In this document: in pieces, positions 6,292 through 55,471 of the stretch
How the letters are laid out: each line of letters starts with the position of its first letter
Position numbering within the stretch: position 1 is the stretch's first letter
Assembly: GCA_025355855.1 (NCBI GenBank)
Contig: JANXYU010000003.1
Span: 88,713 to 152,712 of the forward strand
Length of the DNA: 64,000 nucleotides
Source: Actinomycetota bacterium
GTDB taxonomy: Bacteria > Actinomycetota > JAHEXW01
Reading direction: 5' to 3'
Made by a program: the position numbers and the translations under genes
The notes under the pieces: model-generated
Databases searched by the model: none
Told to the model about the DNA's origin: nothing
What the model saw: the letters and a program-made list of their open reading frames with translations, nothing else

Positions 6292-6295
6292 CGCG

Positions 6296-28397: not shown

Positions 28398-28520
28398 TGC
28401 TTTAGCGCTTTAAAGCACTACAGCGCTCCAGCGTAGGGATTCGATTACTTCAGCGCTACGTAGCGGTGAAGCGTCCAACGTGACGGTTCGATTACTTCAG
28501 CGCTACGTAGCGGTGAAGTA
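28398..28520. repeat. palindromic repeat cluster: GCTTTAGCGCTTTAAAGCACTACAGCGCT followed by two tandem ~47-bp units, each containing the near-palindrome CTTCAGCGCTACGTAGCGGTGAAG
   Basis: Read directly; 24-mers at 28448..28471 and 28495..28518; lies between the cooC/acsF-like gene and nikR. Confidence 0.8.
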
Positions 28521-34328: not shown

Positions 34329-34426
34329 GTTTCGCGCCCGCCCTTCGCTTGATTGGTGTTCAACCAGGCCGAATAGCCTAACTGTGTAGGCAATGATTAT
34401 ATCATAGCGATTTTGCGACGCGGCCT

Positions 34427-34726
34427 CTAGTTGGCGAAACCAATGTTTGGTCCTTTAACGGAACCGGGGTCGGGCGGGCCGGGAATAGGGCCAAAAGCCT
34501 TCTCGTATTTCGCGACGTTTTCGGTCAGCGCCGCCAGGAACGCTTTGGCGTGTTGCGGGCTCATCATTACGCGGCTGACGAGGTCTCCCCGCGGCGGACT
34601 GATACGCAAGAAATCCAATGTAAAATCGAATGGCTGGTGGCTGATGTTCGCGAAATTCGAGTAAACCGGTTCGGTCTGGCTGGTATCGATCGTAATCTGC
34701 ATTCCCTGATCTTTTGGCTCGTCCAT
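34427..34726 (-). CDS. small conserved hypothetical protein (DUF3467-like)
   Basis: 99-aa ORF; ITIDTSQTEPVYSNFANISHQPFDFTLDF resembles DUF3467 from memory. Confidence 0.4.
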   Translation of the reverse strand: MDEPKDQGMQITIDTSQTEPVYSNFANISHQPFDFTLDFLRISPPRGDLVSRVMMSPQHAKAFLAALTENVAKYEKAFGPIPGPPDPGSVKGPNIGFAN

Positions 34727-34759
34727 GTCAACCTCCGCTTGTCTCAGTTTGTCTGGATT

Positions 34760-35242
34760 TTATATCGGGTAGCCCCGCGAATCAGTGTATTTAACCACGC
34801 CGTCTTCGTTACGTTCGGCCTTGAATTGCGCGCCGCTCATGTTTTTGTAGACGCATGTGAACGTTCTCTCTCGGGTCGCTTTAATACTGACTTGCCCGTT
34901 GGCGGGTGAGCTGTTGACCCATTCTATCCGGGGTTCAAGTTTTTTTAGCGAGTATGTCGTCACCGCGGCGAATGAATTGTTGTGCGTGGCGGCGAAGGCT
35001 TCGGCCGCGTCAACGGCGTGAGTTAGGACTGTTTTAGCGGCCCGCGCGTCAGTTTGGTCGACATTCTGGCTTTCGGTCCCGAACATGATAAACACGACAA
35101 CCGCGAAAGCTATTGTGAAAAGCAGGAAGGGGACAGCCAAAGCCAACGCCTTCAGCCATTTCCTACCTTGGCGATGACCGCGCAACTTAGCTCGTTCGTC
35201 CTCGCGCGCCAGCCTCAGTTCTTCGCGTTCCTCTGTAGTCAA
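34760..35242 (-). CDS. hypothetical membrane-anchored protein
   Basis: ORF with one TM helix (ALALAVPFLLFTIAFAVVVFIMF). Confidence 0.35.
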   Translation of the reverse strand: MTTEEREELRLAREDERAKLRGHRQGRKWLKALALAVPFLLFTIAFAVVVFIMFGTESQNVDQTDARAAKTVLTHAVDAAEAFAATHNNSFAAVTTYSLKKLEPRIEWVNSSPANGQVSIKATRERTFTCVYKNMSGAQFKAERNEDGVVKYTDSRGYPI

Positions 35243-35356
35243 CTTGTCGATTATTGTCGCCCCCTCTGGTCAAGAGATGCATCTCAACGCTATATTACCT
35301 ATAATACCCGAGACTATTCCAGAGAATTCGAGAACACTCATCTAGGAGGCGGAAAA

Positions 35357-36031
35357 ATGGCGGAGCGTAGAAACTTAGGCGTTATCGTCGCTGGAGCCTT
35401 GTTTATTTTTGTGGCAATTCTTACGGTCGGCGAGGGCGCTCTACTGCGTCAGTCGGGGCAAAGCCGAACTCAGATCGACCGCTTAAGCCTACGGCTGGCC
35501 AAGTTTGAGGCCGCCCAAAAGAAAACGGCCGCGATTGCGAAGGCTAAGGCTGCGACTAAAACCGTTGATCCCTACGCGGGCTGGCTGACGTATGACAACG
35601 CGGCTGTCGGCTACAAGCTTAGATATCCGGCCGACTGGACTGCCGAGGAGACCACGGACGCCGACTCTGGAGCCGCTAACTTTGTCATCTTCCGCGACTC
35701 AAACCAGAAATACGCGGTCTCGTTCGGACTGCGGAAGTCCGGGTCGGATCTGGTTACTTCCGGGCGAACTGGCTTAGGCCAGGGTGAGTCTTTCACCGGT
35801 GGAACCATCACAATCCTGGGCGAGCTGATCGATAAGACATATCACGTCAACAACGGTCACGCCCTAGTTGTCTTCTATGGCCCCGGGGCGGCTGCCTCTT
35901 TCACCGTCGCCGGAAACGAAATCAACGCGGAGCTGACCGCTCCCGGGCTTGACTGGGAAGCGACCGAATTACGCGGTATCCCCGAAGAGGCCCTATCCGA
36001 TAAGATAGTTACTTCTCTAACAATGAATTAG
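35357..36031 (+). CDS. membrane-anchored paralog 1 (TM anchor + Ala/Lys-rich helix + ~160-aa beta-rich domain beginning DPYAGW-TY)
   Basis: ATG 35357 with RBS TAGGAGG; shares the C-terminal domain with 38772..39503 (...DPYAGWLTYDNAAVGYKLRYPADWT...GRTGLGQGE...NAELTAPGL...). Confidence 0.5.
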   Translation: MAERRNLGVIVAGALFIFVAILTVGEGALLRQSGQSRTQIDRLSLRLAKFEAAQKKTAAIAKAKAATKTVDPYAGWLTYDNAAVGYKLRYPADWTAEETTDADSGAANFVIFRDSNQKYAVSFGLRKSGSDLVTSGRTGLGQGESFTGGTITILGELIDKTYHVNNGHALVVFYGPGAAASFTVAGNEINAELTAPGLDWEATELRGIPEEALSDKIVTSLTMN

Positions 36032-36126
36032 GCAGCCAACCGCGCTCAATTCCATGTCAATCTTTTCGCTCGACAACATTGTCTTCCTGAGCATAATCCT
36101 GATTGAAAATGAGGTAAAGCGCGTAA

Positions 36127-36156
36127 GCGCTTTAGTGCTTTAAAGCACTAAAGCGC
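36127..36156. repeat. perfect 30-bp palindrome GCGCTTTAGTGCTTTAAAGCACTAAAGCGC (same repeat family as 10691-10790 and 28398-28520)
   Basis: Read directly; between convergent paralog-1 and tspO genes. Confidence 0.85.
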
Positions 36157-36176
36157 TCTGGGCTAAATGGGAAGAG

Positions 36177-36584
36177 TTAGGCGTTCTTTATCGTTATTGT
36201 CAGTTGCAATATGGTCGCGAAGGCGACCCAAGCTAAATAAGGGATATTCGCCAGCGCAACCCAAGGGGTGTACGGCCAGATGGCCAGCATTAGCCAGACT
36301 AGAGTGACCAGCACGAGCAGGATGTCGACAGCGGCCAAGACGTTACTGCGGAGTCCGAATTGCAGCGGGGTAAACGCGAAGTTGAATATCAGGTTCAAGA
36401 TAAAGGGGAGAGCCACGACCAGCGGGACACGACCTTTGGCCGCCAGATAGCCGACATAGCCAAATGAAACTGCAATGACTAGATATAGGACAGACCACAC
36501 CGGACCGAACAGCCAGGACGGGGGTGCCCAGGCCGGCTTAGTAAGATGTTGATACCAAGTGTACGAGCTCTCTTGTGTGACCAT
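36177..36584 (-). CDS. tspO: TspO/MBR tryptophan-rich sensory protein
   Basis: WYQHLTKPAWAPPSWLFGPVWSVLY is the canonical TspO N-terminal signature; 5 TM. Confidence 0.85.
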   Translation of the reverse strand: MVTQESSYTWYQHLTKPAWAPPSWLFGPVWSVLYLVIAVSFGYVGYLAAKGRVPLVVALPFILNLIFNFAFTPLQFGLRSNVLAAVDILLVLVTLVWLMLAIWPYTPWVALANIPYLAWVAFATILQLTITIKNA

Positions 36585-36626
36585 AGCGAAAGTATAACCG
36601 AATCAACTAGTTTACGTACCGTGAGT

Positions 36627-37034
36627 TTAAGTCGACTCTCGCATCGCGGCCATGGCGGACTGCTCGCGTTCCTCCATCGGCGTAAAACCTTCCATGATTC
36701 CGAATTTGTTGCCTTCGGTGTCTTCGCAATAGCGGAAGGTCCCGACGTTCATGATCTCTTGCCTATCGGTCAAGTTTTTTCCGCCCGCTTGCTCAATCGC
36801 TTTCGAGGCCTCGTCCAAGTTCTTTACCTCCAGCGTCAAAATGACCTCTGGTTTTTCGCTAGCCATAATCGCGCCGTTGATTCCCGGCTCCTTATCCGAA
36901 CCGGTCGCGGCCAGCCAATAGTCATCGGGGCCTTCCCAAGTGCTAATGTCCCAGCCGAAAACGTCGTGGTAAAAGGTCACCGCGCGCGCCGGCATCGGAC
37001 CAGCTATCTCGAAATGTATTACCCTTCCCATCAT
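36627..37034 (-). CDS. VOC-family (glyoxalase/bleomycin-resistance fold) protein
   Basis: VIHFEIAG...FYHDVFGWDIS...EDTEGNKFGIME. Confidence 0.7.
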   Translation of the reverse strand: MMGRVIHFEIAGPMPARAVTFYHDVFGWDISTWEGPDDYWLAATGSDKEPGINGAIMASEKPEVILTLEVKNLDEASKAIEQAGGKNLTDRQEIMNVGTFRYCEDTEGNKFGIMEGFTPMEEREQSAMAAMREST

Positions 37035-37164
37035 GGGCCTCCTTATGTAAAGGGATTTCCCGGATACGAGCCATTATCGCACTTCCGCAAGGGAATTTAA
37101 CCACTCTGGGGTTAAGACTAGGCGGATTACTAGCCTGATATTGGACACCTATAGAATGCCTATA

Positions 37165-37198
37165 CAGTCTATTGTCTAATTAATTGGACAATAGACAG
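37165..37198. promoter_or_regulatory. inverted repeat GTCTATTGTC-N10-GACAATAGAC upstream of the VOC gene; candidate operator
   Basis: Read directly (cagtctattgtctaattaattggacaatagacag). Confidence 0.3.
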
Positions 37199-37236
37199 TT
37201 GGCTGATGAGAGAGGCGGTTGCAGGTATTTGTTCGA

Positions 37237-37917
37237 TTAATGGATAGTGATTGACGCGGTGATTTGGTAGGCCTCGGCGTCGTGCATGACATAGTAATCG
37301 ACGCCTTTATAGTTAAGGTCGGCCGCGTAGGTAAACGTGTAGACTTTGCGGTTTTTGATCGTCCACAACGTTGTTCTCTTGAAAGGTTGGCCAACCTCGA
37401 CGTATGTATCGACCACCTGGATTGCCGGATTCGAGTCCAGTGTGGTCTCGATCTGGCTGGTCACGTCCCCGCCGCCTTGGGGAGCCTGACGCGCCGCGGC
37501 GACGTAGTCCTCCAGTTTTGCCGCCGCCGGCACCGTCTCGACAAAGACGGTATAGGTGCACTCGTTTTGGTAGGGGCTGCCGGCCGCCATCGCCGGTCCC
37601 AGAAGCGCTGCCCGCAACGTGTCCGCGACAGTCTCAGTCAACGTCCAGTTCGGCGGATATAGGAGGGTGGTGCCCCACGTCTTGTTGGAATACGTCTGCC
37701 AACCTTTATATGGTCCCTCGTCTGTCGGGTTGGAGGCGGTGTCGGTCGCGACCGGTTTCGTCGCGGTAGAAGTTGCCGCGTTGGTAATGGCGGACGTGTC
37801 CTTTATGGCTGAGGGCAGCCGGTACATAGCCAAGATAATCGCCAGCACAGTAAGCGTCACCGCTATTGCCGCAATTATGCTGGCTTTATTTTCCTTAACG
37901 AACCTGCTCTTGGCCAT
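37237..37917 (-). CDS. membrane-anchored paralog 2 (distant; domain begins PYKGWQTYSNKTWGTTLLYPPNWT)
   Basis: N-terminal TM, Thr/Ala-rich linker, shared motif with paralogs 1 and 3. Confidence 0.45.
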   Translation of the reverse strand: MAKSRFVKENKASIIAAIAVTLTVLAIILAMYRLPSAIKDTSAITNAATSTATKPVATDTASNPTDEGPYKGWQTYSNKTWGTTLLYPPNWTLTETVADTLRAALLGPAMAAGSPYQNECTYTVFVETVPAAAKLEDYVAAARQAPQGGGDVTSQIETTLDSNPAIQVVDTYVEVGQPFKRTTLWTIKNRKVYTFTYAADLNYKGVDYYVMHDAEAYQITASITIH

Positions 37918-38078
37918 ATATCATTATAGCCTGCTTCAAATAGCTCGCATGCGATTGTTGCGCGGATTGTGTTCCACTTCGGCCAAGCCTTCAAAATCCA
38001 CGGATCGTCCTTCGTTCCGGCTGCAACGACCTCGCTCGTCATTGCGGATACCCCTTTCGGCTTAGTCTAGGCTAGCAG

Positions 38079-38666
38079 TTAGCTGCCGAGATTTTTGTCC
38101 TTAAAGTACTGCTGGGCTTTGTCTTGCGCTTTGTTAGCCGTATCCTCGGCCGTGCCGACCTGGGCGGCGATACTGTTCAGCTGCGTCTCGTATGCTGCGG
38201 ACGCCTCCGTGGTCAGCGTACCCGCCGCAGCCTGATCCACCAGCTGTTGAAGGGTTTTGACAAGCGACGTTTCCAGGTCACTGACCGCGTCGCGTTTTGT
38301 CCATGAATCAATCAACAATCCCAGATACGTCTTGTATTCAGAGGATATGTCCATTGCCTTGGCTTTTGTAAGAGAATCCTTGCCACTCTTGACCGCGCTT
38401 TTTTCCTCAGCGATCTTGGTTTGAATCTTCGTCAGAGCGGCCGATTTCTGGGCGAACCCGGCGGCGTCGTTCGGCATTGCCTCGACGGCTTTCATATCGT
38501 TCAGAATCTGTGTGGCCAGAGAGTTATATGTATCAATATTGGTATTTGCCTTGGTGACAAGGCCGCTTGCTTCTTTCGTTTGGCCGCTGCCGCCGCAAGC
38601 CAGGAGCAAAAACGTTACCCCAAGAACCAATGCCACAGCCAACGGTACCCGGTAAGATTTTTTCAT
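38079..38666 (-). CDS. alpha-helical lipoprotein
   Basis: Lipobox LLLACGG after MKKSYRVPLAVALVLGVTF. Confidence 0.5.
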   Translation of the reverse strand: MKKSYRVPLAVALVLGVTFLLLACGGSGQTKEASGLVTKANTNIDTYNSLATQILNDMKAVEAMPNDAAGFAQKSAALTKIQTKIAEEKSAVKSGKDSLTKAKAMDISSEYKTYLGLLIDSWTKRDAVSDLETSLVKTLQQLVDQAAAGTLTTEASAAYETQLNSIAAQVGTAEDTANKAQDKAQQYFKDKNLGS

Positions 38667-38771
38667 GTTGTCTCCTTTTGCTTATGCGACAGGTTAAAAT
38701 CTAAAGCAAGCAACGTCAATGTACCTTTACCTTCAAATGCAGTCAATACGATACGCACGGTAAACTAAACA

Positions 38772-39503
38772 TTGAATGGTCGGCCTGGTAATGTTAATTA
38801 TGAGGAGAACAACCGCATTGGGGGAATCGTGGCGAACCGAAAGAAAACAATAACAATTCTGGCAGCAGTCTTGGGGGTAATTCTCGCGATGCTCGTGGCT
38901 GGCGAGGGTGTGTATCTGGTAGTATCCGGCGAGAACAAGGCTCAAATAAACACGCTCAACAAACGTCTGGCCAATCTGGAGAGCCAACAGGCCGCGAAGG
39001 CGAAGAGCGCGGCCCAAAAAGCCGCGGCACAGTCCGCAGATCCCTACGCCGGTTGGCAAACTTACGAGAATACGACTGCCGGTTACACGCTGCGCTATCC
39101 CTCCGACTGGACCTTTGCGGAAACCTTAACGTCAGACGCTGGAGCCGCCAACTATGTCACTTTTTCCAGCGCCGGCAAAAAATACAGAGTCGCGTTCGGC
39201 TTGCGACCGGCGGGCTCGGATACCATCATTTCCGGCCGTACGGGCCTGGGACAGGGCGAAACTGTGGTTGACGGAACGATTCAGGTTCTGGGACAAACGG
39301 TTGGTAAGGCTTATCACGTCAACGGCGGCCACACGCTTGTGGTTTTTTATGGTGCCGGACTGGCCGCCAATTTTGTGGTAAACGACAACGATATCAACGC
39401 GGAATTAGACGCGCCCGGACTTACTGCAGGCAAAACGGATCTGCGCGGAACCACTGAGGAGGACATCGCAGACAAGATCGTGTCCTCGCTGGCGCTGCAA
39501 TAG
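38772..39503 (+). CDS. membrane-anchored paralog 3
   Basis: ...DPYAGWQTYENTTAGYTLRYPSDWT...GRTGLGQGE...NAELDAPGL...; closely similar to 35357..36031. The start may be the internal GTG (VANRKKTIT). Confidence 0.5.
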   Translation: MNGRPGNVNYEENNRIGGIVANRKKTITILAAVLGVILAMLVAGEGVYLVVSGENKAQINTLNKRLANLESQQAAKAKSAAQKAAAQSADPYAGWQTYENTTAGYTLRYPSDWTFAETLTSDAGAANYVTFSSAGKKYRVAFGLRPAGSDTIISGRTGLGQGETVVDGTIQVLGQTVGKAYHVNGGHTLVVFYGAGLAANFVVNDNDINAELDAPGLTAGKTDLRGTTEEDIADKIVSSLALQ

Positions 39504-39531
39504 GTCGCCGTTGGCTTCCTAAGGTCTCTAA

Positions 39532-40029
39532 CTAAAGCTCTCTGACGAACCCCGTAAAATCAGGAAGAAAACCCATGGCTGCATATGCCTTCGAAGCCTC
39601 GGGGTTAGCGAGCCAGGAATCCACTCCGACCGCGCCGCAGCCGCGGCTTTTGAACCACGCCTCCATTTCAGTCATCAACCGGCCGCCGAGACCATGCCTC
39701 CGGTGGTGCTCATCGACGAACAGATCGTCGACGTAGCCCCACATGGCGATCTGCTGGCCGGGCTCGCTTTCCACCGTGCCCAGGATATAGGCGGCCAGCC
39801 GCCCATCGCCCAAGTCGGCGACCAGTATTCGTTTGTCCGGCTGCCGCGTGCCCGCCAGCCACGTCTCGAACCCGCCCTCGGCCGGCGCGTCGAATTTATA
39901 CATCTCTGGCGGCAGTATATCCTTAATGAAGTCGCCAAACGCTTGATGCAACCGGCGCATCTCGTCAATATCCGTATGAATATACTCGCGTATCGCTATA
40001 TCGCTCATGCCCAAATTATAAACGCTCAA
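39532..40029 (-). CDS. GNAT-family N-acetyltransferase
   Basis: Acetyl-CoA-binding motif HRRHGLGGRLM. Confidence 0.7.
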   Translation of the reverse strand: MSVYNLGMSDIAIREYIHTDIDEMRRLHQAFGDFIKDILPPEMYKFDAPAEGGFETWLAGTRQPDKRILVADLGDGRLAAYILGTVESEPGQQIAMWGYVDDLFVDEHHRRHGLGGRLMTEMEAWFKSRGCGAVGVDSWLANPEASKAYAAMGFLPDFTGFVREL

Positions 40030-40102
40030 TCTCAGATACCCAAATACTCAAACAGCGCCGTAAGAACTTGCGCTGTTCGGCCCGTTAGATAATGATGTAG
40101 GC

Positions 40103-40579
40103 ATGATTAATTGGAAGAACTGCTGGAAGATAACGATTTTCGCGGGTTTGTTATTGGCGGCTCTGCCGCTACTGGCCGGGTGCGGCCTGACCACAGCGCC
40201 ACGCGGCGATGTGTCGACGCCGGCCAAGGCTCTCCTGGGACACTGGCAAGTCAAAGACGCGGGTACGACGACAAGCGACGCAGATGGTTTCTATTTCGAC
40301 GGGAAAACCGTCTACTACCGTGAGGGAACCGGAGAGACGTCGGTCACCAATCAATATCAAAATACCTACCGGGCCATAGATTCGGCGCTCGAGCCGTTCA
40401 GTATTACCATCGAGTATCAATACCAGGACTTCGTAACCGGTCAGCAGATGACGGCTCGTAAGGAGATCGTCTTCGACAGCGACAAAACCCAGTTCACATT
40501 CAACAACAACACCGACACCCGGCAAGCAAAGGAAGGACTGGGCCCCTACACCTACGTCGGCCCGGAAACGAAACCCTGA
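40103..40579 (+). CDS. lipoprotein
   Basis: Lipobox LLAGCG after a TM-like signal. Confidence 0.5.
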   Translation: MINWKNCWKITIFAGLLLAALPLLAGCGLTTAPRGDVSTPAKALLGHWQVKDAGTTTSDADGFYFDGKTVYYREGTGETSVTNQYQNTYRAIDSALEPFSITIEYQYQDFVTGQQMTARKEIVFDSDKTQFTFNNNTDTRQAKEGLGPYTYVGPETKP

Positions 40580-40843
40580 GACCAAACCCCAAGTCAAGTC
40601 ATTCGGTCATAAGAGAGCAAAACGGAAGCCTTTCAAAAACGGTCATCCTGGGTTCGCGACTTTTGCGAACGCAGGAACTGAAGCGAATCCCACTATCCAG
40701 CTAAAATCGTGCGTGGTGGATCATAGAACAAGAACATTGCCGCGACCCTAGAGAGCCAGAACCCGAATGCTAAACTAACAATTCAAGACTTGACCCTTTT
40801 TATTTTTATTGGGTGGGGGGGAGTGGGCAGCGCTAGCCGAGCG

Positions 40844-43564
40844 TCACTTTTGCGATATCTTCGCGGCTGCGACCTTTAGCTCCGGGATCTTCGCTACCGG
40901 ATCTAACGCCGGATTCGTGACCGCATTGGCCGCCGCCTCCGCGTAGTGGAACGGCATATATATAACCCCAACCGGCACATCCTCCGTTAGCCGCGCCTTC
41001 GCCGTCACGCTGCCGCGCCTCGTCGTAACCGTCACCGACCGCTTGTTCTTCACCCCGTACTTCTTCGCGTCAGCCGGATTGATGTCGACCCTGGCCTCCG
41101 GTTCGATCTCGTTTAAGCCGTCGACCTTCCTGGTCATCGTGCCTGTGTGCCATTGAGCCAGGTAGCGACCGGTGGTCAAGATTAGCGGATACTTGGCGTC
41201 TGTGACTTCCGCAGGCGGTTTGTAATCGATGGCGTGGAATTTGCCTTTGCCGCGGGCGAACGTTTCCGTGTGCAGGATTGGCGTGCCCGGATGGCCGGGC
41301 GTCGGGCAGGGCCAGTGAATGCCGCAAACTTCGATCCGATGATGGCTGATGCCGCCGTACGCGGGTGTGACCGCCGCGATCTCTTCGAAGATGGCAGCCG
41401 ATGAATGGTAGTTCATTTTGTAACCGAACTTGGACGACACCAGACCGATGATCTTCCAATCGCTCAAAGCCTCGCCAGGCGGTTGGATGGCCTTACGGAC
41501 CGGTTGGACGCGCCGTTCGGTGCTGGTGAACGTACCGGACTTCTCCGCGAAGGTCGCGGCCGGCAGGACGACGTCGGCCAGCCGCGCCGTTTCTGTCAAG
41601 AAGATATCCTGGACGACCAGGAAGTCTAGGCCTTTCAGACCGGCGATAATGTGGGCCTGGTCCGGCTCGGACAAAATGGGGTTCTCGCCCATGATGTACA
41701 TGGCGCGAATGCCGCCCTTGGCCGCCGGTGTGCCGGCCGCTCTAGTCATCTCCGTGGCCGTTAACCCGGGTTTTTTCGGCAACTTCCGGCCCCAGGCCGC
41801 CTCAAATGATTTTCGAACACCGACATCGGCGACACTTTGGTAGCCCGGGTAAACGTTCGGCAGGGCTCCCATATCGCAGGCGCCCTGGACGTTGTTCTGG
41901 CCGCGCAGGGGGTTGACGCCCATACCAGGTTGGCCGATGTTCCCGGTCATCATCGCCAGGTTGGCTAGAGTCATGACGTTGTCCACGCCGGTCGTGTGCT
42001 GAGTGATGCCCATGGCGTAGATGATGGTCGCTTTGTCCGCGCCAGCGTAGATCTCCGCCGCGCGAACGATGTCGGCCGCCGGAATGCCGGTGATTGATTC
42101 AACGTAGTCGGGCGTGTATTTTTCGACCATGGCCACGACGGCCGCGAAGCCCTCCGTCCTCTCTTTGATAAACGATTTATCGGCCAGGCCGATATCCAAA
42201 ATGACGTGCATTAAACCATTGATGAGCGCGACGTCGGTGCCCGGTTTCTGAGACAGCCACATGTCGGCGTATTTTACCAACGGGATCCGGCGCGGTTCCG
42301 CCACAATCAAACGGGCGTCTTTGTTCTTTACAGAGTCGATGATGTTCAAGCCCAGAATGGGGTGGGCCTCGGTCGTGTTCGAGCCAATGACCAGAATGAC
42401 GTCAGCCTCCCCGATGTCCTCCAGGGAATTCGTCATCGCCCCGCTGCCAAACGCCGCGGCCAGACCGGCCACCGTTGGGCTGTGTCACAATCGAGCGCAG
42501 TTGTCGATGTTGTTCGTACCGACCCCCGCGCGGGCAAACTTTTGCATCAGGTAATTCTCTTCGTTGGTACATTTGCTGGAGGAAAGGAAGCCGATGGCGT
42601 CGGCCCCGTATTCCTGTTTGGTTCTCTTCAGTCCGGCGGCGACGGCCGCGATGGCTTCGTTCCACGACGCCGGCACCAGCTCCCCGTCCTTGCGTATTAA
42701 TGGGGTGATCAGACGGTCCGGGCTGTTCACGAAACCGTAGCCGAAGCGGCCTTTCACGCACAGGTCGCCCTTGTTGACCGGAGAATCCTCCCGCGAGGTG
42801 ACGCGCACGATGTGCTGGCCGTCGGTTTCCAAGACTATGGCACAGCCAACGCCGCAATACGGACAGGTGGTGACCGTTTTCTTGAGGTCTTTGCTGCGGC
42901 CCCGGTAGCGGCTGGGCTTCTCAGTCAACGCGCCGACGGGGCAGACCGAGACACAGCGCCCGCATTGGACGCATTCGGTTTCCGGTAGGGGACGGTTAAG
43001 GGCGGACGTGACCATCGTGTCAAAGCCGCGTCCCATGTAGTCGATGACCTCGCAGAACTGGAGCTCCTGACACGCCTGAGCGCAGCGGTAACATTTCACG
43101 CATTTTTCGAAATCCCGGACAATGAACGGGTTGGCGGTATCGATGGGATAACGGTTGCGCCGCCCCCGGAAACGGGAATCGGCGACCTGATATTCATAAG
43201 CCAGGTCCTGCAGTTTACAATGTCCGCTCTGTTCGCACGTCAGACAATCGCCGGGGTGATCGGAGAGCAACAGCTCCAGCACCAGTCGGCGGGCGGCCAC
43301 GGCGCGGTCGGTATGGGTCAGCACCCGCATGCCCGATTCGGCGGGACGGGCACAAGCCGCGATCAATGGACGGCCCGGACCCTCGCCCTCCAGCTCGACG
43401 ACGCAAAGACGGCACGCGCCGGTCGGCGTGAGATGCCGGTGGTTGCACAGATGAGGAATATCGACCTTGGCCTTATGGGCGGCTTCCATGATGGACGCGC
43501 CGCGATGAATCTTTACGGGCACGTCGTTAATGAACAGGGAAACTGTATCGGACTTTCTAGCCAC
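40844..43564 (-). CDS. fdhA: selenocysteine-containing formate dehydrogenase catalytic subunit (FdhF/FdhA-like; N-terminal 2Fe-2S/4Fe-4S ferredoxin modules + Mo/W-bis-PGD domain), in-frame UGA at 42487..42485
   Basis: Two track ORFs (42485..43738 and 40844..42472) are in the same frame, separated by TGA + HSPT. The joined sequence ...[30 protein letters not shown] matches the E. coli FdhF Sec140 context NCARV-U-HGPSVAGL. The likely start is GTG 43564 with a GGGAGG RBS, overlapping the NuoF-like stop by 8 nt. Confidence 0.85.
42445..42487 (-). promoter_or_regulatory. bacterial SECIS element directly 3' of the fdhA UGA
   Basis: mRNA UGA CAC AGC CCA ACG GUG GCC GGU CUG GCC GCG; the GCC-GGUCU-GGC hairpin with GGUC apical loop is at the same register as the E. 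coli fdhF SECIS (UGA CAC GGC CCA UCG GUU GCA GGU CUG CAC). Confidence 0.65.
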
Positions 43565-45287
43565 GGTTGGCCTCCCGATTCGCGGGCCGCCGCTTGCAAA
43601 TGCCATGCGGGCATTTCTTGTGTTCGATATGGGCGACGTATTCATCGCGGAAATATCGGATGGTGGACAAGACCGGGTTGGGCGCGTTTTGGCCCAGGCC
43701 GCAGAGAGACGTGTCGCGCACCACGGCCGCCGTCTCAATCAACAGGTCGATGTCTTCAATTTTCCCGTTGCCGCCGGCGATGCGTTCCAAAATCTCCAGC
43801 ATGCGGGTAGTGCCGACGCGGCAGGGGGTGCATTTGCCGCACGATTCGGCCGCCGAAAACGCCAGAAAATAGCGGGCGATATCGACCATACAGGCGGTTT
43901 CGTCGAGAACGATGACGCCGCCGCTGCCCATGATGGCCCCGACTTTGCTCAAGGTGTCGTAGGTCACGGACAGATCCAGAAATTCGGCCGGGATACAGCC
44001 GCCGGACGGGCCGCCCATCTGAACCGCTTTGAATTCCTTACCGTCGATGATGCCGCCACCCAGGTCGAAGATGAGCTCACGCAGGGTGATGCCCATCGGG
44101 ACCTCGACCAGTCCGGTGTTGTTCAGCTTACCAGCCAGGCTGAAGACCTTTGTGCCGCGCGAGGTACCGGAGCCCATGTCGTTGTAGACATCGGCGCCGC
44201 GGCCGATGATAACAGGCACGTTGGCCAGGGTCTCAACGTTATTGATGCAGGTTGGTTGGCCCCAAAGTCCGGCTACCGCCGGATAGGGCGGGCGGGGGCG
44301 GGGTGTGCCGCGTTTGCCCTCCAAACTGGCGATCAGCGCGGTTTCTTCCCCGCAGACGAACGCGCCGGCGCCTTCCTTGACCGTAATGTCGAAGTCGAAG
44401 CCGGAGCCCAAAATGTTCTGGCCGAGCAGGCCATATTTTCGCGCCTGGTCGATGGCCAGGGTGAGATGCTCGACGGCGATGGGATATTCCGCGCGCACAT
44501 AGATGTAGCCTTCGGACGCGCCGATGGCGAAGCCCGCAATGATCATGCCTTCGATGACGGCGTGCGGATCGCCCTCCATGACGCCGCGATCCATAAACGC
44601 GCCGGGGTCGCCCTCGTCGCCATTGCAGATGAGATATTTCGGTTTGGATCTTTCCTTGCGCGCCAGGCGCCACTTCAAAAAGGTCGGGAAACCGGCGCCG
44701 CCGCGGCCGCGCAGGCCGGACGCCTCCAGTTCGTTTATGATGCCGTTGGGGGTCAACCTTATCAGGGCGCGCGCCGCCGCCGCGTAGCCGCCAGTCCGGA
44801 TGTAGGCGTCGAGGGAGCGCGGGTCGACGCGACCAAGGTTGCGCAACACGCTGCGTTCCTGCGCCTTATAGAACGGGACTTCGGCGGCTTGTGTTATCGG
44901 CTGGCCGGTGGCCGGGTCTTTGTAGGCCAGGCGGTTAATGGGTTTTTTGTTTAATATGGTCTTCTGCACTATCTCCGGAACGTCGGCCGGTTTGACCTGG
45001 CCGTAGAAGATGCTGACTGGATCGATCTCGATGACGGGCGCCTGGGCGCAGAAACCGTGGCAGCCTGTTTCAACGACTTCGATGTTCTTGCGCTCGGCCG
45101 CCGGGAGCCTGGCGATTTCTTTGGCGAGCGCCGCGGAGACCGCGTCGGCGCCTGACGCCCGGCAACCGGTCATGCAGACGCGGACCCGCGTCTTATTCGG
45201 GTCGTAAGCCGTCTGCAAACGGTTACGCAAAGCGTTGAGGTCAGTCCGCGTATTTAGTTTTTGCGTGTTCGGTACGTTCTTTGGCAC
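43557..45287 (-). CDS. NuoF/HydB-like NAD(P)H-binding flavoprotein subunit with N-terminal thioredoxin-like [2Fe-2S] and C-terminal 2x[4Fe-4S] (formate dehydrogenase beta / HylB-like)
   Basis: GRGGAGFPT, FMN/NADH motifs, C-terminal CGKCTPCR...CGLGQ; GTG start with AGGAGC RBS. Confidence 0.85.
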   Translation of the reverse strand: MPKNVPNTQKLNTRTDLNALRNRLQTAYDPNKTRVRVCMTGCRASGADAVSAALAKEIARLPAAERKNIEVVETGCHGFCAQAPVIEIDPVSIFYGQVKPADVPEIVQKTILNKKPINRLAYKDPATGQPITQAAEVPFYKAQERSVLRNLGRVDPRSLDAYIRTGGYAAAARALIRLTPNGIINELEASGLRGRGGAGFPTFLKWRLARKERSKPKYLICNGDEGDPGAFMDRGVMEGDPHAVIEGMIIAGFAIGASEGYIYVRAEYPIAVEHLTLAIDQARKYGLLGQNILGSGFDFDITVKEGAGAFVCGEETALIASLEGKRGTPRPRPPYPAVAGLWGQPTCINNVETLANVPVIIGRGADVYNDMGSGTSRGTKVFSLAGKLNNTGLVEVPMGITLRELIFDLGGGIIDGKEFKAVQMGGPSGGCIPAEFLDLSVTYDTLSKVGAIMGSGGVIVLDETACMVDIARYFLAFSAAESCGKCTPCRVGTTRMLEILERIAGGNGKIEDIDLLIETAAVVRDTSLCGLGQNAPNPVLSTIRYFRDEYVAHIEHKKCPHGICKRRPANREANRG

Positions 45288-45550
45288 CTAGCTCCTAAAG
45301 TGTGTCTCCCGATAAGAAAGACTATATCTGGCGGGTCCACCCCCACCTTTCATCCTCCCCCTTCCCGTAGGGGGAGGAAAAAACTAAACCAAAGCTCTAA
45401 AACTGTCCACCTCCTAGGAGGAGGAAATAAATATATGTACTTCCCGTTAGGGAATCGATTGCACTTCTTCTAGCGTCCCCCAAGGAGAGGCAAATATCTA
45501 GTCGCTCGTCTTAAATAATTCGACGCGCGGGTGAATCGAATACACTGTCC

Positions 45551-45644
45551 GGCGGGTGGCGCGACTGGGGGGACCCCCAGATCGCGCGCAGGCCACCGAT
45601 CGGCGAGCACGATATGGGGGAAGTCTGTCGCGACAGGACCCGCC
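45551..45644. repeat. ~90-bp TIR-bounded structured repeat (copy A): GGCGGGTG...CTGGGGGGACCCCCAG...GACAGGACCCGCC
   Basis: Read directly; aligns with copy B (46920..47010) and partial copy C (50677..50715); inside the 400-bp nuoE/nuoF spacer. Confidence 0.7.
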
Positions 45645-45690
45645 GGATTTCACTCCCGCACCTGCTCGTCACTCTTTAAGAACGCGAGCG

Positions 45691-46113
45691 TCACTTGCTC
45701 TTTCTGTACTTATCCAGCACTTCCACAGCCTTCTCCGCCGTTAGCTTCCCGTAATACTCGCCGTCCACCGTCATGACCGGGGCCAGGAAACAAGAGCCAA
45801 GGCAGGCGACGGTGTCGAGCGTGAATAGTCGGTCGGGCGTGGTCTCGCCGGGTTCGATGCCCAGCTCCGTTCGCAACCGCTTCAGCACGTCGGTACCGCC
45901 TTTGACGTGGCAAGCGGTGCCGTCGCAGACGGTGACGCGGTGCTTGCCGACCGGTTTCAGCCGGAACTGGGAATAAAAGGTCGCCACCGAATAGATCTCG
46001 GAGAGCGGCACGCCCAATTCTTTGCTGACTCGCTCAATTTTGGCCGCGGGCAGGTAGCCTTCCTTGGCTTGAACCTTTTGAAGTGTGGTGATCAGCTGCC
46101 CGCGTTCGCTCAC
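45691..46113 (-). CDS. NuoE/HydC-like [2Fe-2S] thioredoxin-fold subunit
   Basis: CDGTACHVKG...CLGSC Cys pattern of the 24-kDa subunit family. Confidence 0.85.
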   Translation of the reverse strand: MSERGQLITTLQKVQAKEGYLPAAKIERVSKELGVPLSEIYSVATFYSQFRLKPVGKHRVTVCDGTACHVKGGTDVLKRLRTELGIEPGETTPDRLFTLDTVACLGSCFLAPVMTVDGEYYGKLTAEKAVEVLDKYRKSK

Positions 46114-46115
46114 AT

Positions 46116-46889
46116 CTAATCCAGGTAAGAGTCGGCGTAGAGGATATTGCCATTAAAGACGTCGACGGTTTTGACCGTGTTCATCAATTCCCTGTCGGTC
46201 GGGTCCATGATCGCCGCGTCCAGACCGAGCGCCATCAGGCTGGATAGCATCGTGCTATCCAGCAGCGTCTTGATTGGCCCGGTTAGACCGTTGGAGGTGT
46301 TGGACAGACCGACAACTGTCTTTAGCGGTGGATCGTTCAGTTGGCGAAACAGCTTGATGGCCTCAAAAACCTGGAGCGCCTGTTCCTGCGCAACCTTGAC
46401 GGGGAGAATCAGGGGGTCGAAGTAGATACGCTCGACGTCAACGCCGTAGCCCATGGCGTTGGTCATGATGTCGACAGCGATCGCGGCGCGTTCGTTGGCG
46501 TCGCGCGGGATGCCGTTCATCATAGTAAGGCCGATGATATCGGCGTCATATTTGGCCGCTAACGGCAGATAGGCTTCCATCTTCTCCGGCAGACCGTTGG
46601 TCGAGTTGATCAGCGCCGTGCCTTTGTGGACCTTGAGCCCCGCTTCGATGGCGGCTGGGTTCATCGAATCCAGGCAGCAACGAATATCCATAGCCTCTTG
46701 GATGGTCTGGACCAGCCAGGCCATGCGCTCCGGCCCGTCTTTGGCCTGACCGATGTTGATGTCCAACATATTGGCGCCGGCGTCGACCTGCGCCTGGGCC
46801 ATAGCCAGAACCGGACCCGCGTCGCGGTCCTTCATGGCCTGCCCGATCTTCGTGTTGATAACGTTTACCTTTTCACCGATTACTAACAT
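46116..46889 (-). CDS. acsE: methyl-tetrahydrofolate:corrinoid iron-sulfur protein methyltransferase (MeTr)
   Basis: Pterin-binding TIM barrel MLVIGEKVNVINTKIGQAMKDRD...MLDINIGQ; 257 aa. Confidence 0.85.
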   Translation of the reverse strand: MLVIGEKVNVINTKIGQAMKDRDAGPVLAMAQAQVDAGANMLDINIGQAKDGPERMAWLVQTIQEAMDIRCCLDSMNPAAIEAGLKVHKGTALINSTNGLPEKMEAYLPLAAKYDADIIGLTMMNGIPRDANERAAIAVDIMTNAMGYGVDVERIYFDPLILPVKVAQEQALQVFEAIKLFRQLNDPPLKTVVGLSNTSNGLTGPIKTLLDSTMLSSLMALGLDAAIMDPTDRELMNTVKTVDVFNGNILYADSYLD

Positions 46890-46919
46890 ATTATTCTCCT
46901 TTTTTTATATATAGAACAT

Positions 46920-47010
46920 GAGCGGGTGACGTCGGTGGGGGACCCCCGCAGCGCGCGCAGGCCACCAGCCAACGAGCACGTAGTAGGGGTGACCGATGGC
47001 AGGACCCGCC
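46920..47010. repeat. ~90-bp TIR-bounded structured repeat (copy B), between metF and acsE
   Basis: GAGCGGGTGACGTCGGTGGGGGACCCCCGCAGCGCGCGCAGGCCACC...GGCAGGACCCGCC; ~70% identical to copy A with a conserved GGGGGACCCCC hairpin and GCGGGT/ACCCGC termini. Confidence 0.7.
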
Positions 47011-47950: not shown

Positions 47951-48072
47951 TTTTTCGTTAGCCGCTAGAACTTTGTAGCTGCCAGTCTTTATGACCGGCA
48001 GTCGAGCGCCGACCTAAAGGACGGCGCCTACCCGTTGTCGCGGAGGATTCACCGTATAATTTCTACTCTTTA

Positions 48073-48742: not shown

Positions 48743-50665
48743 TCACTCCTTGATGGCGATCATGGCCGGTTCGAGACCCAGTTCGGTAAGTGTGGCTTGG
48801 ACGGATGCGACGCGGGCGATCGTCCGGTCGCGGGCAGTGCCGAAGAAACAACCTTCCTCGGGACACAGCGACACGTTCACCTTAGCCGCGCCGGCCCGCA
48901 GTGCTTCCAGCATCAATAGTTCGCTGACCTGACCGATACACATCGCGGGGACAATCGTGTGACCTTGCGGGAGCTCGTCAGCATCGTTATAAAGACGGTT
49001 CATGCAGTAGAAATCGACCTGTTTCGCGGCCGCCGCGGCGGCAACGGCCTCGTCAAGCAGACGTTCCTCTTGACCGCGCCGGAGTGTAATGGCGCCGGCC
49101 GGACATTCGGTGGCGCACAGACCGCACGCCTGGCATTCCGCTGTATCAATGACAGCGACATTGTCGGCGCCGATCTTCGGAATCTCAAAAGGACAGACGC
49201 GCACGCACGTTAAACAGGCAATACATTTTTCCGGGTCAACTACCGCGCCGGACAGGCAAGCCATGCAGCGCAAACCCTCACGCGCCGCCTCGACCTCTGT
49301 TAAACCCGGCTCGAACAGCTCGAAGTCCCGGACGCGATCGGCGGACGGGCGCGTCATGCCGGTGCGGCGCTGGCGGGCCGGCACGAGCGGACGCATCCGC
49401 TCGGGCAAGTCGGCTAACACGGCCGGCTCGTAAACGGCAGCCGGTTTGCCGGTTAGAAACGCGGCGACGGCCGCGGCGACAACATGGCCGTTCTGTACCG
49501 CACCGATGGCGCTCCCTGGCCCGGTCGCGAACTCCCCTGCCATGAAGACATCCCGCGGTTGTTCTTTCGTTATGTCAACTTCAGCGCTACGTAGCGCTGA
49601 AGTGTCCCGGCCTTGGCCGATAGAGACAATAACGGTCTCACCGGCTACTGTCAAGAATTTGTCGGGGACGAATTGCGGGTCGAAACGGCCTTCTTCGTTG
49701 AATACGCGTGACACGGCCTGACAGGTAAGACCCTCGACCGAGGCGCCGGAGCTGACTAGTTTTGATGGACCGAGGCAGCAGTTCAGGTTGACACCTTCGG
49801 CGGCCGCCTCTTCGATCTCCCAATCATGCGCTGGCATTTTATCGCGCGACTCCAGGCAAACCAGGTTTACCTCCTTGGCGCCCAACCGGACAGCGGTCCG
49901 GGCAACGTCAATGGCAACGTTGCCGCCGCCGACCACGATGACCCTACTTTTGAGCGCCGGCGGATTCCCCGCCTTGACGGCTTTCAAAAACGGGATCGCG
50001 GTGTAGACGTTATCGCCTTCTGTCGGGAAAACGGGCAGGCTGCGGGAAAAAGGCAAGCCGGTCGCGATAATGACTCCGTCATTATCGGCTCTTAATTCGT
50101 CGATACTAAAATCTTTGCCAAGCTCTTGACCATATTTGATTTTAACCCCGGTCGCAGCGACTTCATTGATATCACAGTCAAGTGCCGTGTCTGGGAGGCG
50201 ATAGTTTGGGATGGTAAGGCGAAGCATACCGCCGGCTTTGGGCTCGCGTTCGAAAACGGTGACCTTGTGGCCGGCCGCGACCAGGTCTTGGGCGGCGGTA
50301 AGGCCCGCGGGCCCGGCCCCGATGATCGCGATACGTTTGGCCTCTCCACCCAGATTCCTTCTTTGCATGTGGAACTGTCCGTTCGACGCTGACTCAGGAT
50401 CTGGCCCGCAGGCTTCGCCGAATGCCGCTGCGGCTCGTTTAAGTTCCATGATGGAGATCGGCTGGTCGACTGAGGCGCGGCGGCAGTTCTGCTCGCACGG
50501 GCGGAAGCAGATATAGCCGCAGCTATTGGAGAATGGATTGGTCAGGCGCGCGACGTCGTAGGCTTCGGTGAAACGGCCGAGCGCCGTCAGGGCCACGTAG
50601 CCCTGAACGTCGGTAAATGCCGGACAAGCCGCCTGACACGGCGGCACAAAATCACGCATAAACAC
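48743..50665 (-). CDS. GltD/NfnB-like FAD-NAD(P) flavoprotein fused to a 2x[4Fe-4S] ferredoxin and an MvhD/FlpD-like domain (MetFV-associated electron-transfer subunit)
   Basis: N-terminal FVPPCQAACPAFTDVQGY...CGYICFRPCEQNC, Rossmann motifs IAIIGAGPAGL and VIVVGGGNVAID, then CIACLTCVRVCPF/CQACGLCATECP and a Cys-rich tail. Confidence 0.6.
   Translation of the reverse strand: MFMRDFVPPCQAACPAFTDVQGYVALTALGRFTEAYDVARLTNPFSNSCGYICFRPCEQNCRRASVDQPISIMELKRAAAAFGEACGPDPESASNGQFHMQRRNLGGEAKRIAIIGAGPAGLTAAQDLVAAGHKVTVFEREPKAGGMLRLTIPNYRLPDTALDCDINEVAATGVKIKYGQELGKDFSIDELRADNDGVIIATGLPFSRSLPVFPTEGDNVYTAIPFLKAVKAGNPPALKSRVIVVGGGNVAIDVARTAVRLGAKEVNLVCLESRDKMPAHDWEIEEAAAEGVNLNCCLGPSKLVSSGASVEGLTCQAVSRVFNEEGRFDPQFVPDKFLTVAGETVIVSIGQGRDTSALRSAEVDITKEQPRDVFMAGEFATGPGSAIGAVQNGHVVAAAVAAFLTGKPAAVYEPAVLADLPERMRPLVPARQRRTGMTRPSADRVRDFELFEPGLTEVEAAREGLRCMACLSGAVVDPEKCIACLTCVRVCPFEIPKIGADNVAVIDTAECQACGLCATECPAGAITLRRGQEERLLDEAVAAAAAAKQVDFYCMNRLYNDADELPQGHTIVPAMCIGQVSELLMLEALRAGAAKVNVSLCPEEGCFFGTARDRTIARVASVQATLTELGLEPAMIAIKE
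49578..49601. repeat. perfect 24-bp palindrome CTTCAGCGCTACGTAGCGCTGAAG embedded in-frame in the 48743..50665 CDS (encodes TSALRSAE)
   Basis: Identical to the intergenic palindrome at 10717..10740. Confidence 0.85.
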
Positions 50666-55348: not shown

Positions 55349-55471
55349 TAGACCCTCCCACTGCGAGCAATCAGCTCGCCTTGCGCGTTGCCTTCGTAGC
55401 TGCCGGTCTTTAGACCGGCAGTCGAGCGCCGACCTAAAGGTTGGCGCCTACATCTCTACACTCGTACGTGT

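Follow-up and report, generated by a model that had tools for sequence, protein, structure and literature searches.

A selenocysteine-type formate dehydrogenase module with a HydB-like flavoprotein that lacks the C-terminal ferredoxin domain, in a Wood-Ljungdahl operon of groundwater Actinomycetota

A formate dehydrogenase module at the end of a Wood-Ljungdahl operon

We analysed a 64,000-nucleotide stretch of DNA (hereafter the window; contig JANXYU010000003.1 of assembly GCA_025355855.1) from an uncultured groundwater Actinomycetota lineage. A formate dehydrogenase module is encoded on its minus strand at positions 40844-46113. The module consists of three co-directional open reading frames (ORFs) in the order nuoE-like, nuoF/HydB-like and fdhA, and a non-coding spacer of 403 nt separates the first two (Table 1). 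An earlier reading of the same stretch without database searches (the sequence-only reading) had proposed this gene anatomy and had assigned the genes to a soluble formate dehydrogenase with a selenocysteine (Sec)-containing FdhA, a NuoF-like subunit and a NuoE-like subunit. The gene coordinates proved accurate, and the assignment is supported by TIGR01591, by Pfam domains and by solved relatives. The three genes very probably encode one formate dehydrogenase complex.

Profile searches of the window ORFs place these genes at the 3' end of a complete Wood-Ljungdahl operon on the minus strand, with the order fhs - RACo - cooC - folD - acsD - acsB - acsC - gltD/mvhD-like - metV - metF - acsE - nuoE - nuoF - fdhA. 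The nearest genome match is a groundwater 'Actinomycetes bacterium' metagenome-assembled genome (L001; NuoF 92% identical), and further relatives of the locus carry the label Actinomycetota. Synteny of the Wood-Ljungdahl and formate dehydrogenase genes recurs in L083-L088 and L106. Within this clade, in which NuoF is 70-82% identical, the long contigs L083 and L086 keep the operon from acsB to fdhA, and the shorter contigs L088 and L106 keep the part from acsE to fdhA in the same gene order.

Against TIGR01591 ('formate dehydrogenase subunit alpha'), which has a cutoff of 666 bits, the fdhA product scores 865 bits. Pfam domains describe a NuoG-like N-terminus, with sites for a [2Fe-2S], a His-ligated [4Fe-4S] and two further [4Fe-4S] clusters, followed by a molybdenum/tungsten bis-pyranopterin guanine dinucleotide (Mo/W-bisPGD) catalytic domain. 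All of the Cys/His cluster motifs are present in the translation. The best solved relative is Rhodobacter capsulatus FdsA (6tg9_A), which aligns over the full length (residues 4-904) at 775 bits, and the combination of a NuoG-like Fe-S N-terminus with a Mo/W-bisPGD domain is that of the FdsABG alpha subunit.

The fdhA reading frame is broken once only, by an in-frame TGA that we read as selenocysteine, and the gene calls in L083, L086 and L088 are split at the same codon. A candidate bacterial selenocysteine insertion sequence (SECIS) hairpin lies just downstream of this codon. Its folding energy is no better than that of shuffled sequences (z = +0.5), so the SECIS call rests on position and on a resemblance to the SECIS of Escherichia coli fdhF. 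An ARAGORN scan of the window for tRNAs and tmRNA detected none, tRNA-Sec included. Among about 60 window ORFs scanned with Pfam, none was named as a sel gene; no search aimed at sel genes was run. In the relative L107 (NuoF 76% identical), FdhA is called as a single ORF of 847 aa (3128-5671), located 160 nt downstream of nuoF and without overlap. This unsplit frame suggests that FdhA of L107 probably has Cys in place of Sec.

The nuoF stop codon and the fdhA GTG start (43564) overlap by 8 nt (GTGGCTAG), and a GGAGG sequence lies 6 nt upstream of the GTG. The identical overlap is found in L083, L086, L088 and L106. As the sequence-only reading had stated, nuoF and fdhA are translationally coupled.

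The flavoprotein is of HydB type and lacks the C-terminal ferredoxin domain

The NuoE-like gamma subunit matches PF01257 (175 bits) and NF005722 (154.7 bits) and contains the CxxxxC...CxxxC motif. Its best solved relatives are HydC subunits of bifurcating hydrogenases (7t2r_C, 150 bits, and 7p5h_C); FdsG reaches only 72-76 bits. By its PF01257 domain and its best Protein Data Bank match (7t2r_C), gamma corresponds to the [2Fe-2S]-bearing BfuC subunit (IPR002023) of the Bfu family.

The NuoF-like beta subunit matches PF01512 (165 bits), PF10589 (116 bits) and PF10531 (24.9 bits, E = 1.8e-5, slightly below the 27-bit cutoff). It has the NuoF-type flavin mononucleotide (FMN)/NADH, SLBB and NuoF [4Fe-4S] domains of BfuB. 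It also has the N-terminal thioredoxin-like [2Fe-2S] domain (cluster B5) of BfuB, seen as PF01257 at residues 31-109 with CMTGC and CHGFC motifs. Beta scores 712 bits against the HydB structure 7t2r_B, 694 against 8a6t_B, 687 against 7q4v_B and 637 against 7p5h_B, compared with only 391-453 bits against FdsB (6tg9_B, 6vw7_B). Beta and gamma are homologous to FdsB and FdsG but belong to the HydBC lineage. In the alignment of beta with 7t2r_B, which is the sole basis for assigning ligands, the GDPGAFMDR motif is kept, the DETACMVD Cys and H..KKCPHGIC are present, and the position of Acetomicrobium mobile C476 is occupied by Ala. The Ala and Met of GDPGAFMDR (A202 and M204 in A. mobile numbering) lie near FMN and are reported to be Bfu-specific (PMC9304861).

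In almost all of 85 related loci, NuoE immediately precedes NuoF, and NuoE and NuoF homologs form an obligate pair in all of the solved complexes compared. A flavoprotein grouping with partners other than formate dehydrogenase would have undermined the sequence-only reading. This is not the case: in every inspected member of beta's own clade (L083-L088, L106 and L107), nuoF is directly followed by fdhA.

Beta departs from the solved HydB chains at its C-terminus. It ends 11 residues after KKCPHGIC, and the solved chains run about 60 residues further. No Fer4 Pfam domain matches beta, and so the C-terminal 2x[4Fe-4S] domain of BfuB (IPR017896, clusters B3/B4) is missing. This domain is present in every structurally characterised bifurcating HydB compared. 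We also compared 80 more distant related loci, 76 of which are cleanly readable through the C-terminus, and all 76 carry about 60 extra residues with eight further Cys. The close homologs P0002-P0009 (536-567 aa) all lack the domain. P0002-P0005, P0008 and P0009 (70-82% identical) end as beta does, with CKR(R/K/Q)P and a short basic tail, and P0006 and P0007 have the same length as the other clade members and likewise no Fer4 Pfam domains. The shortened C-terminus and the 8-nt nuoF/fdhA overlap are kept in at least six other genomes. From these comparisons, the truncation is most parsimoniously explained as a secondary loss that has become a conserved, selected state. Some other HydB-type relatives (L010; proteins P0023, P0059 and P0104) have a fused GltD/NfnB-like domain in place of the C-terminal ferredoxin domain.

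The definition of the Bfu family includes a ferredoxin-type C-terminal domain and six BfuBC clusters (PMC9304861). Furlan et al. found the cysteines of this domain conserved across all characterised bifurcating hydrogenases (PMC9499530), and Katsyv et al. placed the ferredoxin site on it (PMC10021017). Ferredoxin reduction has been assigned to its B3/B4 clusters (PMC9499530, PMC10021017). The sequence-only reading had called the enzyme 'possibly bifurcating', a suggestion that is weakened by the clade-wide absence of the domain. It had also likened the three subunits to Fds-type and Hyl-type enzymes together, and the alignments and cofactor motifs divide this likeness: alpha is FdsA-like, beta and gamma are HydB/HydC-like with Bfu motifs, and the B3/B4 ferredoxin domain of the Bfu enzymes is absent.

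The nuoE-nuoF spacer is a lineage-specific insertion of repeats

The sequence-only reading had singled out the non-coding, repeat-rich gap of about 400 bp between nuoE and nuoF as unusual for subunits of one complex, and it is indeed an outlier. Between the nuoE stop and NuoF residue 75 lie 626 nt, compared with a median of 132 nt in the 85 related loci, only one of which has a larger value. The spacer is predicted to fold at -171.6 kcal/mol, compared with -141.4 +/- 6.2 kcal/mol for shuffled sequences (z = -4.9), and none of 100 shuffles folds as well. It contains a copy of a repeat that we term element A, enclosed by an outer inverted repeat, and closer to nuoF a CCUCC/GGAGG hairpin (45348-45383) with a related second hairpin at about 45406-45425. 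The exact 9-mer of the half-site GGCGGGTCC occurs four times in the window, always in intergenic regions of the Wood-Ljungdahl operon. Two independent Logan assemblies (SRR22198310 and SRR20627840) carry the spacer at 99.9% identity. Both spacer-bearing Logan contigs (L081 and L082) break at the same base inside nuoF (window position 44722), which suggests strain variation or a repeat at that position.

Comparison with relatives indicates that the spacer is derived. In L083, L086, L088 and L106, nuoE and nuoF overlap by 4 nt. In L001, 81 nt lie between the two genes and contain one perfect hairpin (GCTTTAGTGC...GCACTAAAGC), which belongs to a palindrome family also found at window positions 10684, 28399 and 36129. 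Apart from the Shine-Dalgarno sequence and start codon, the spacer has no homology to that of L001, and it matches nothing in the parts of the operon available from L083-L088, the relatives at 70-82% identity.

A second copy of element A lies between metF and acsE. The core of the spacer copy (positions 94-139 of the spacer) aligns over 47 nt with window positions 46922-46966 at 83% identity (E = 2.4e-5), and the two copies share a consensus fold with 24 pairs. In L001, the metF-acsE gap holds a different repeat, element B (L001 2592-2649), where the window has element A. Copies of element B are 91-95% identical between the window and L001 genomes despite a synonymous divergence of about 0.9 substitutions per site, a pattern to be expected if the repeats are constrained in sequence or have spread recently. 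Relatives of its first hairpin occur in 16 soil/peat metagenome contigs (L089-L104), often preceded by GTA, in unrelated intergenic contexts such as between an ABC permease and its binding protein. The second hairpin is sometimes compensated in these contigs (for example in L096). We considered element B as an RNA specific to the Wood-Ljungdahl pathway and ruled this out, since none of these 16 contexts is related to that pathway.

The presence of different elements at the same site in sister genomes, together with their absence from more distant relatives, indicates sequences that resemble repetitive extragenic palindromic (REP) sequences and bacterial interspersed mosaic elements (BIMEs), or miniature inverted-repeat transposable elements (MITEs), and not a conserved regulator. 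The view of the spacer as a designed feature of the module, which the sequence-only reading could be taken to imply, is not supported: it is a REP-like insertion confined to one lineage whose relatives retain a 4-nt overlap. We also considered a MITE with a target-site duplication for the 323-nt segment between the GGCGGGTCC inverted repeats, and no flanking direct repeat is visible.

Searches for coding or regulatory content in the spacer were negative. Five ORFs (51-81 aa, from both strands) were compared with Pfam, and none gave a match at E <= 0.1. Rfam 15 gives no match at gathering score in the whole window and only chance-level matches (E >= 0.87) in region 45100-45900 at E <= 10; no riboswitch (including the molybdenum and tungsten cofactor riboswitches, Moco/Wco), small RNA or SECIS family was found by Rfam search of the window and spacer. 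A promoter/terminator scan of the spacer detected no promoter-like site on either strand and no terminator-like site on the coding strand; its four terminator-like matches all lie on the non-coding strand.

Related palindromes occur elsewhere in the window. In BIME-like clusters at 10684-10790, 28399-28520 and 36121-36158, a GCTTTAGTGCTTTAAAGCACTAAAGC palindrome is accompanied by one or two copies of the ACTTCAGCGCTACGTAGCGCTGAAGT palindrome. These clusters lie in unrelated intergenic regions; intergenic copies of the ACTTCAGCGCTACGTAGCGCTGAAGT family are at 10716, 10760, 28447 and 28494. A perfect 26-nt copy of ACTTCAGCGCTACGTAGCGCTGAAGT also lies at 49578-49603, inside the coding sequence 48743-50665 (gltD/hdrA-like-mvhD), where it encodes DTSALRSAEVD. 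We rejected an in-frame insertion as the origin of this copy, as the protein aligns with its homologs without a change in length.

The genes on either side of the spacer remain functional. Between the window and L001, the ratio of nonsynonymous to synonymous divergence (dN/dS) is 0.06 for nuoF and 0.15 for nuoE at a dS of about 0.9, so both genes are under purifying selection. The GTG at 45287 is the sole nuoF start that retains the conserved NuoF N-terminus (compared with P0003), and it is preceded by an in-frame TAG and by AGGAG. This Shine-Dalgarno sequence is only partly accessible (probability of being unpaired 0.39), and base-pair probabilities are ambiguous as to its sequestration by the CCUCC hairpins. 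The nuoE-nuoF junction is separated in both the window and L001 lineages, and loss of translational coupling between the two genes is therefore tolerated, presumably owing to nuoF's own Shine-Dalgarno sequence and GTG. A 21-codon ORF (MKGGGGPARYSLSYRETHFRS; 45291-45353, minus strand, in the nuoF frame) begins inside the GGGGGAGG hairpin, and its TAG abuts the nuoF GTG. This ORF is probably fortuitous; it could also allow termination-reinitiation.

Table 1. Features of the formate dehydrogenase locus and of the operon that contains it (window coordinates)
Feature	Position	Strand	Description
fhs	59051-60754	minus	First gene of the Wood-Ljungdahl operon
Element B (GTAG - hairpin 1 - hairpin 2 - CTAC)	47974-48031, 55394-55451		metV-metF and folD-acsD gaps
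Repeat element A, copy 2	46908-47010	minus	metF-acsE intergenic region
acsE	46116-46889	minus	Directly upstream of the nuoE-like gene
nuoE/HydC-like gamma subunit	45691-46113	minus	140 aa, one [2Fe-2S], GTG start directly after acsE stop
Non-coding spacer	45288-45690	minus	Exactly 403 nt, mosaic of palindromic repeats
Outer inverted repeat around element A	3' arm 45501-45528 (TTTAAGACGAGCG), 5' arm 45664-45690 after nuoE stop	minus	In minimum free energy and centroid structures
Repeat element A, copy 1	45548-45647	minus	About 100 nt, long imperfect hairpin closed by GGCGGGT...ACCCGCC
Hairpin UUUUCCUCCCCCU-ACGGGA-AGGGGGAGGAUGAAA	45348-45383	minus	Inverted repeats I1, I8; direct repeats D1, D5
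Inverted half-site GGCGGGTCC	45326-45338	plus	Inverted repeat I3; 92% complementary to 45636-45648, 297 nt away
Shine-Dalgarno AGGAG (45292-45296) and nuoF GTG start (45285-45287)	45285-45296	minus	Both kept in L001
NuoF/HydB(BfuB)-like beta subunit	43557-45287	minus	576 aa; FMN/NAD(P)H site, [4Fe-4S], KKCPHGIC
fdhA alpha subunit	40844-43564	minus	906 codons; GTG start at 43564
TGA read as selenocysteine, codon 360	42485-42487	minus	In frame, motif CARL-U-HSP
Candidate bacterial SECIS hairpin	42446-42480	minus	GGUCU apical loop, begins 4 nt after UGA

Proposed function and alternative explanations

We propose that the nuoE-like, nuoF-like and fdhA products assemble, as gamma, beta and alpha subunits, into a single Sec-containing Mo/W formate dehydrogenase that is soluble and cytoplasmic. 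Based on its domains, the enzyme is most likely an NAD(P)H-linked reversible CO2 reductase/formate dehydrogenase of bifurcating-type ancestry. NAD(P)H would give a hydride to FMN in beta, and electrons would travel via the [4Fe-4S] cluster of beta and the NuoG-like cluster chain of alpha. They would reach the Sec-Mo/W-bisPGD site, where CO2 would be reversibly reduced to formate. Formate would supply Fhs, the product of the first gene in the same operon. Beta is presumably of HydB/BfuB descent, its whole clade having lost the C-terminal 2x[4Fe-4S] domain that would carry the ferredoxin branch; with this domain gone, the enzyme most likely works with NAD(P)H only, and we lean towards a non-bifurcating complex.

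At the nuoE-nuoF junction, nested REP/BIME-like palindromes would have inserted, in a lineage-specific manner, into an ancestral 4-nt ATGA overlap, with nuoF retaining or gaining its own AGGAG and GTG. The operon is probably still co-transcribed, and the hairpins are probably only passive elements of mRNA stability or processing that uncouple translation of nuoF-fdhA from that of nuoE. The spacer is quite probably a repeat insertion without a specific regulatory role, and we regard the account as a whole, an NAD(P)H-linked formate dehydrogenase with a repeat-inserted spacer, as likely.

An NfnB-like gene (Fer4_20 and Pyr_redox_2 domains; 10834-12270) adjoins an NfnA-like gene (dihydroorotate dehydrogenase B Fe-S and NAD_binding_1 domains; 12252-13100) on the minus strand of the window. 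Their arrangement suggests an NfnAB transhydrogenase. Such a pair could supply a highly reduced NADPH pool for CO2 reduction, as has been proposed for Moorella.

Several observations weigh against a simple NAD(P)H-linked enzyme, and they are also what would favour an electron-bifurcating formate dehydrogenase (an Fdh-Bfu enzyme resembling FdhF2-HylABC) that couples formate, NAD(P)+ and ferredoxin. The core of beta scores 637-712 bits against bifurcating HydB proteins and 391-453 bits against non-bifurcating FdsB, so that beta and gamma are closest to subunits of structurally proven bifurcating enzymes. Beta retains the GDPGAFMDR motif reported to be Bfu-specific, the N-terminal [2Fe-2S] domain with its four Cys, and the Cys and His that align with the Zn/B2 site. 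These retained residues make a modified bifurcation route conceivable. Reduction of CO2 with NAD(P)H alone is, moreover, thermodynamically uphill, and the electron donor, the lack of bifurcation, co-transcription across the spacer and the effect of its hairpins are all things that we infer. Even so, a bifurcating enzyme seems unlikely to us. The C-terminal B3/B4 domain, which the Bfu definition requires, which is conserved in characterised HydB proteins and which has been modelled as the site of ferredoxin docking and reduction, is missing here and throughout the clade, and alpha is most like the non-bifurcating FdsA. Quite unlikely, in our judgement, is that the clade represents an undescribed enzyme class, a natural 'delta-B3/B4' BfuBC core kept with FdhA(Sec) through the 8-nt overlap in Actinomycetota with the Wood-Ljungdahl pathway. 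Such an enzyme might bifurcate by a new route, with the low-potential electron leaving the B2/C1 region for another protein, for instance the GltD/MvhD-like fusion encoded in the operon, or it might show how a bifurcating complex turned into a CO2 reductase that depends simply on NAD(P)H. A very different explanation makes the gap a functional boundary, with the NuoE-like protein serving the upstream MetFV/AcsE and the dehydrogenase consisting of NuoF and FdhA only. The position of nuoE, right after the acsE stop and 403 nt from nuoF, would fit this division, but the 4-nt nuoE/nuoF overlap in relatives, the near-universal NuoE-NuoF order and the obligate pairing in solved complexes make it very unlikely.

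The repeat interpretation of the spacer also faces contrary evidence. The element A core has no match in Joint Genome Institute metagenomes, only two copies of element A exist in 64 kb, and elements A-D have no additional copies in contig L105, which continues the sequence for 9.2 kb past the window end. Element A has no GTAG motif, and no REP-associated tyrosine transposase (RAYT) or other transposase was found among the roughly 60 window ORFs scanned. For these reasons, 'REP-like' describes the behaviour of the element and not a proven membership. All window copies of elements A and B lie inside one operon, which could hint at a function, and in Actinobacteria strong hairpins can terminate transcription without a U-tract, so that the promoter/terminator scan would miss such sites. 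The spacer might be a functional regulatory unit (either a terminator paired with an internal promoter or an RNA structure of the leader or riboswitch kind) through which nuoF and fdhA would be expressed separately from the other operon genes, with Se, Mo/W or formate as conceivable signals. Its predicted structure is very stable; the nuoF ribosome-binding site is only partly accessible and has an AT-rich stretch and several CCUCC/GGAGG hairpins in its vicinity; and the 21-codon upstream ORF is in frame with nuoF. All of this is compatible with such a unit. We nevertheless find it improbable. The spacer is not conserved, being replaced by 81 unrelated nt in the 92% relative and by none at 70-82%; it has no Rfam family match (including the Moco riboswitch), and no sigma-70-like promoter or intrinsic terminator on the coding strand; the metF-acsE site holds element A in one genome and element B in the other; and hairpins of the B type are also found elsewhere, in operons of unrelated content. 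Less likely than the new enzyme class considered above is a role of elements A and B as structured RNAs within the Wood-Ljungdahl operon that set the expression of its segments relative to one another. Finally, the source is a metagenome assembly and repeats can mis-assemble. Errors of assembly or sequencing might have created the spacer or shortened the flavoprotein, or the genes might be pseudogenes in decay. This can hardly be the case, as two independent assemblies reproduce the spacer, at least six other genomes keep the truncated C-terminus and the 8-nt overlap, and dN/dS is 0.06-0.15.

Other features of the window

Directly upstream of metV-metF, the operon encodes a protein that fuses a GltD/NfnB-like FAD/NAD(P) domain, 2x[4Fe-4S] and an MvhD/FlpD domain (48743-50665, minus strand). 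The gene is kept in L083 and L086, and its product may be the electron-input module of methylene-tetrahydrofolate reductase.

Downstream of fdhA, the window contains a GNAT gene and ORFs without Pfam matches. A segment of about 6.5 kb (approximately 34330-40840), between fdhA/GNAT and DUF2520-panB-amj, consists mostly of ORFs without Pfam matches and has a lower GC content in parts. This segment is absent from the syntenic L083 and L086, where EndoV stands instead, and it may be an insertion. A 64-nt non-coding stretch 3' of fdhA (40670-40732) is 78% identical to the fdhA-GNAT gap in L083/L084 (12475-12537). This conservation is above neutral expectation, as these relatives are only about 71% identical in NuoF protein.

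Contig L105 encodes rnpA-yidD-yidC-jag-mnmE and dnaA-dnaN at 3688-7176, about 3-6 kb past the window end. The window thus adjoins the chromosomal replication origin.

Significance

The Wood-Ljungdahl pathway has already been described for uncultured Actinobacteria (PMC7325909). Formate dehydrogenase-NuoEF modules beside Wood-Ljungdahl genes have been noted in many genome papers, including those on Chloroflexi, Desulfotignum and candidate phylum NPL-UPA2. With both of these known, our main finding is ordinary genome annotation: an enzyme of a known kind in a known pathway context, the novelty of which is a HydB-type flavoprotein without clusters B3/B4. The clade has lost exactly the domain that models based on cryo-electron microscopy hold responsible for ferredoxin reduction and has kept the core, and it thus provides a natural test of those models. 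The module also bears on how the high energetic cost of the first step in CO2 fixation is met by uncultured Actinomycetota of the subsurface.

The spacer itself is of limited interest, the best explanation being that repeats have colonised an operon junction. It carries a caution for genome scans, namely that repeats which have merely colonised an operon can account for a large and highly structured gap between the genes of one complex. Within one lineage the junction has gone from a 4-nt overlap to 81 nt and to 403 nt, while strong purifying selection has continued to act on both flanking genes. Regulation should not be concluded from a high fold z-score alone.

Comparison with known systems

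The spacer elements resemble the REP/BIME sequences of Enterobacteria and Pseudomonas (for example in the malE-malF intercistronic region). Both are short imperfect palindromes, often clustered and in alternating orientation, that lie between genes, including inside operons, and vary among close relatives. The GTAG/CTAC of classical REPs is shared by elements B and C, and the expected effect in both cases is mRNA stabilisation or processing rather than specific regulation. The elements described here differ in their low copy number (2-5 per family in 64 kb; palindromic and intergenic, with one C-type copy inside a coding sequence), in the length of element A (about 100 nt, without GTAG), in the lack of a RAYT in the window and in their actinobacterial host.

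FdsABG(D) of R. capsulatus and Cupriavidus necator (PDB 6TGA, 6VW7) has the same three-subunit layout, with an alpha subunit that is NuoG-like and contains Mo-bisPGD, an FMN-containing NuoF-like beta subunit and a NuoE-like gamma subunit. Its beta subunit likewise has no C-terminal ferredoxin domain, and the interconversion of NAD(P)H and CO2/formate is likely shared chemistry. FdsABG(D) has an active-site Cys, whereas the enzyme described here has selenocysteine. The beta and gamma subunits of the present enzyme are also much nearer to HydB/HydC than to FdsB/FdsG, and the N-terminal domain of its beta subunit retains its four Cys. No fdsC or fdsD was seen in the operon, for which no dedicated search was made, and the host is an anaerobe in which the module forms part of a Wood-Ljungdahl operon.

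The Bfu family (HydABC-type enzymes and Fdh-Bfu, such as Gottschalkia acidurici FdhF2-HylABC; PMC9304861) includes the type of beta and gamma subunits found here, and beta is 55-58% identical to solved HydB proteins. The N-terminal [2Fe-2S] domain and GDPGAFMDR are common to both, and beta has candidate Zn/B2-site residues. The arrangement is Type-1-like, with the catalytic pterin domain fused to a BfuA-like subunit. Beta differs from the Bfu family in lacking the 2x[4Fe-4S] ferredoxin domain (IPR017896, B3/B4), and bifurcation by published mechanisms is therefore not expected.

The FdhA-NuoEF/Wood-Ljungdahl clusters known from uncultured anaerobes likewise encode a soluble formate dehydrogenase and a NuoEF-type diaphorase together with Wood-Ljungdahl genes. 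The locus described here is set apart from them by a HydB-type beta subunit without the ferredoxin domain, conserved in one Actinomycetota clade, and, in this genome, by a nuoE-nuoF junction that is broken by repeats.

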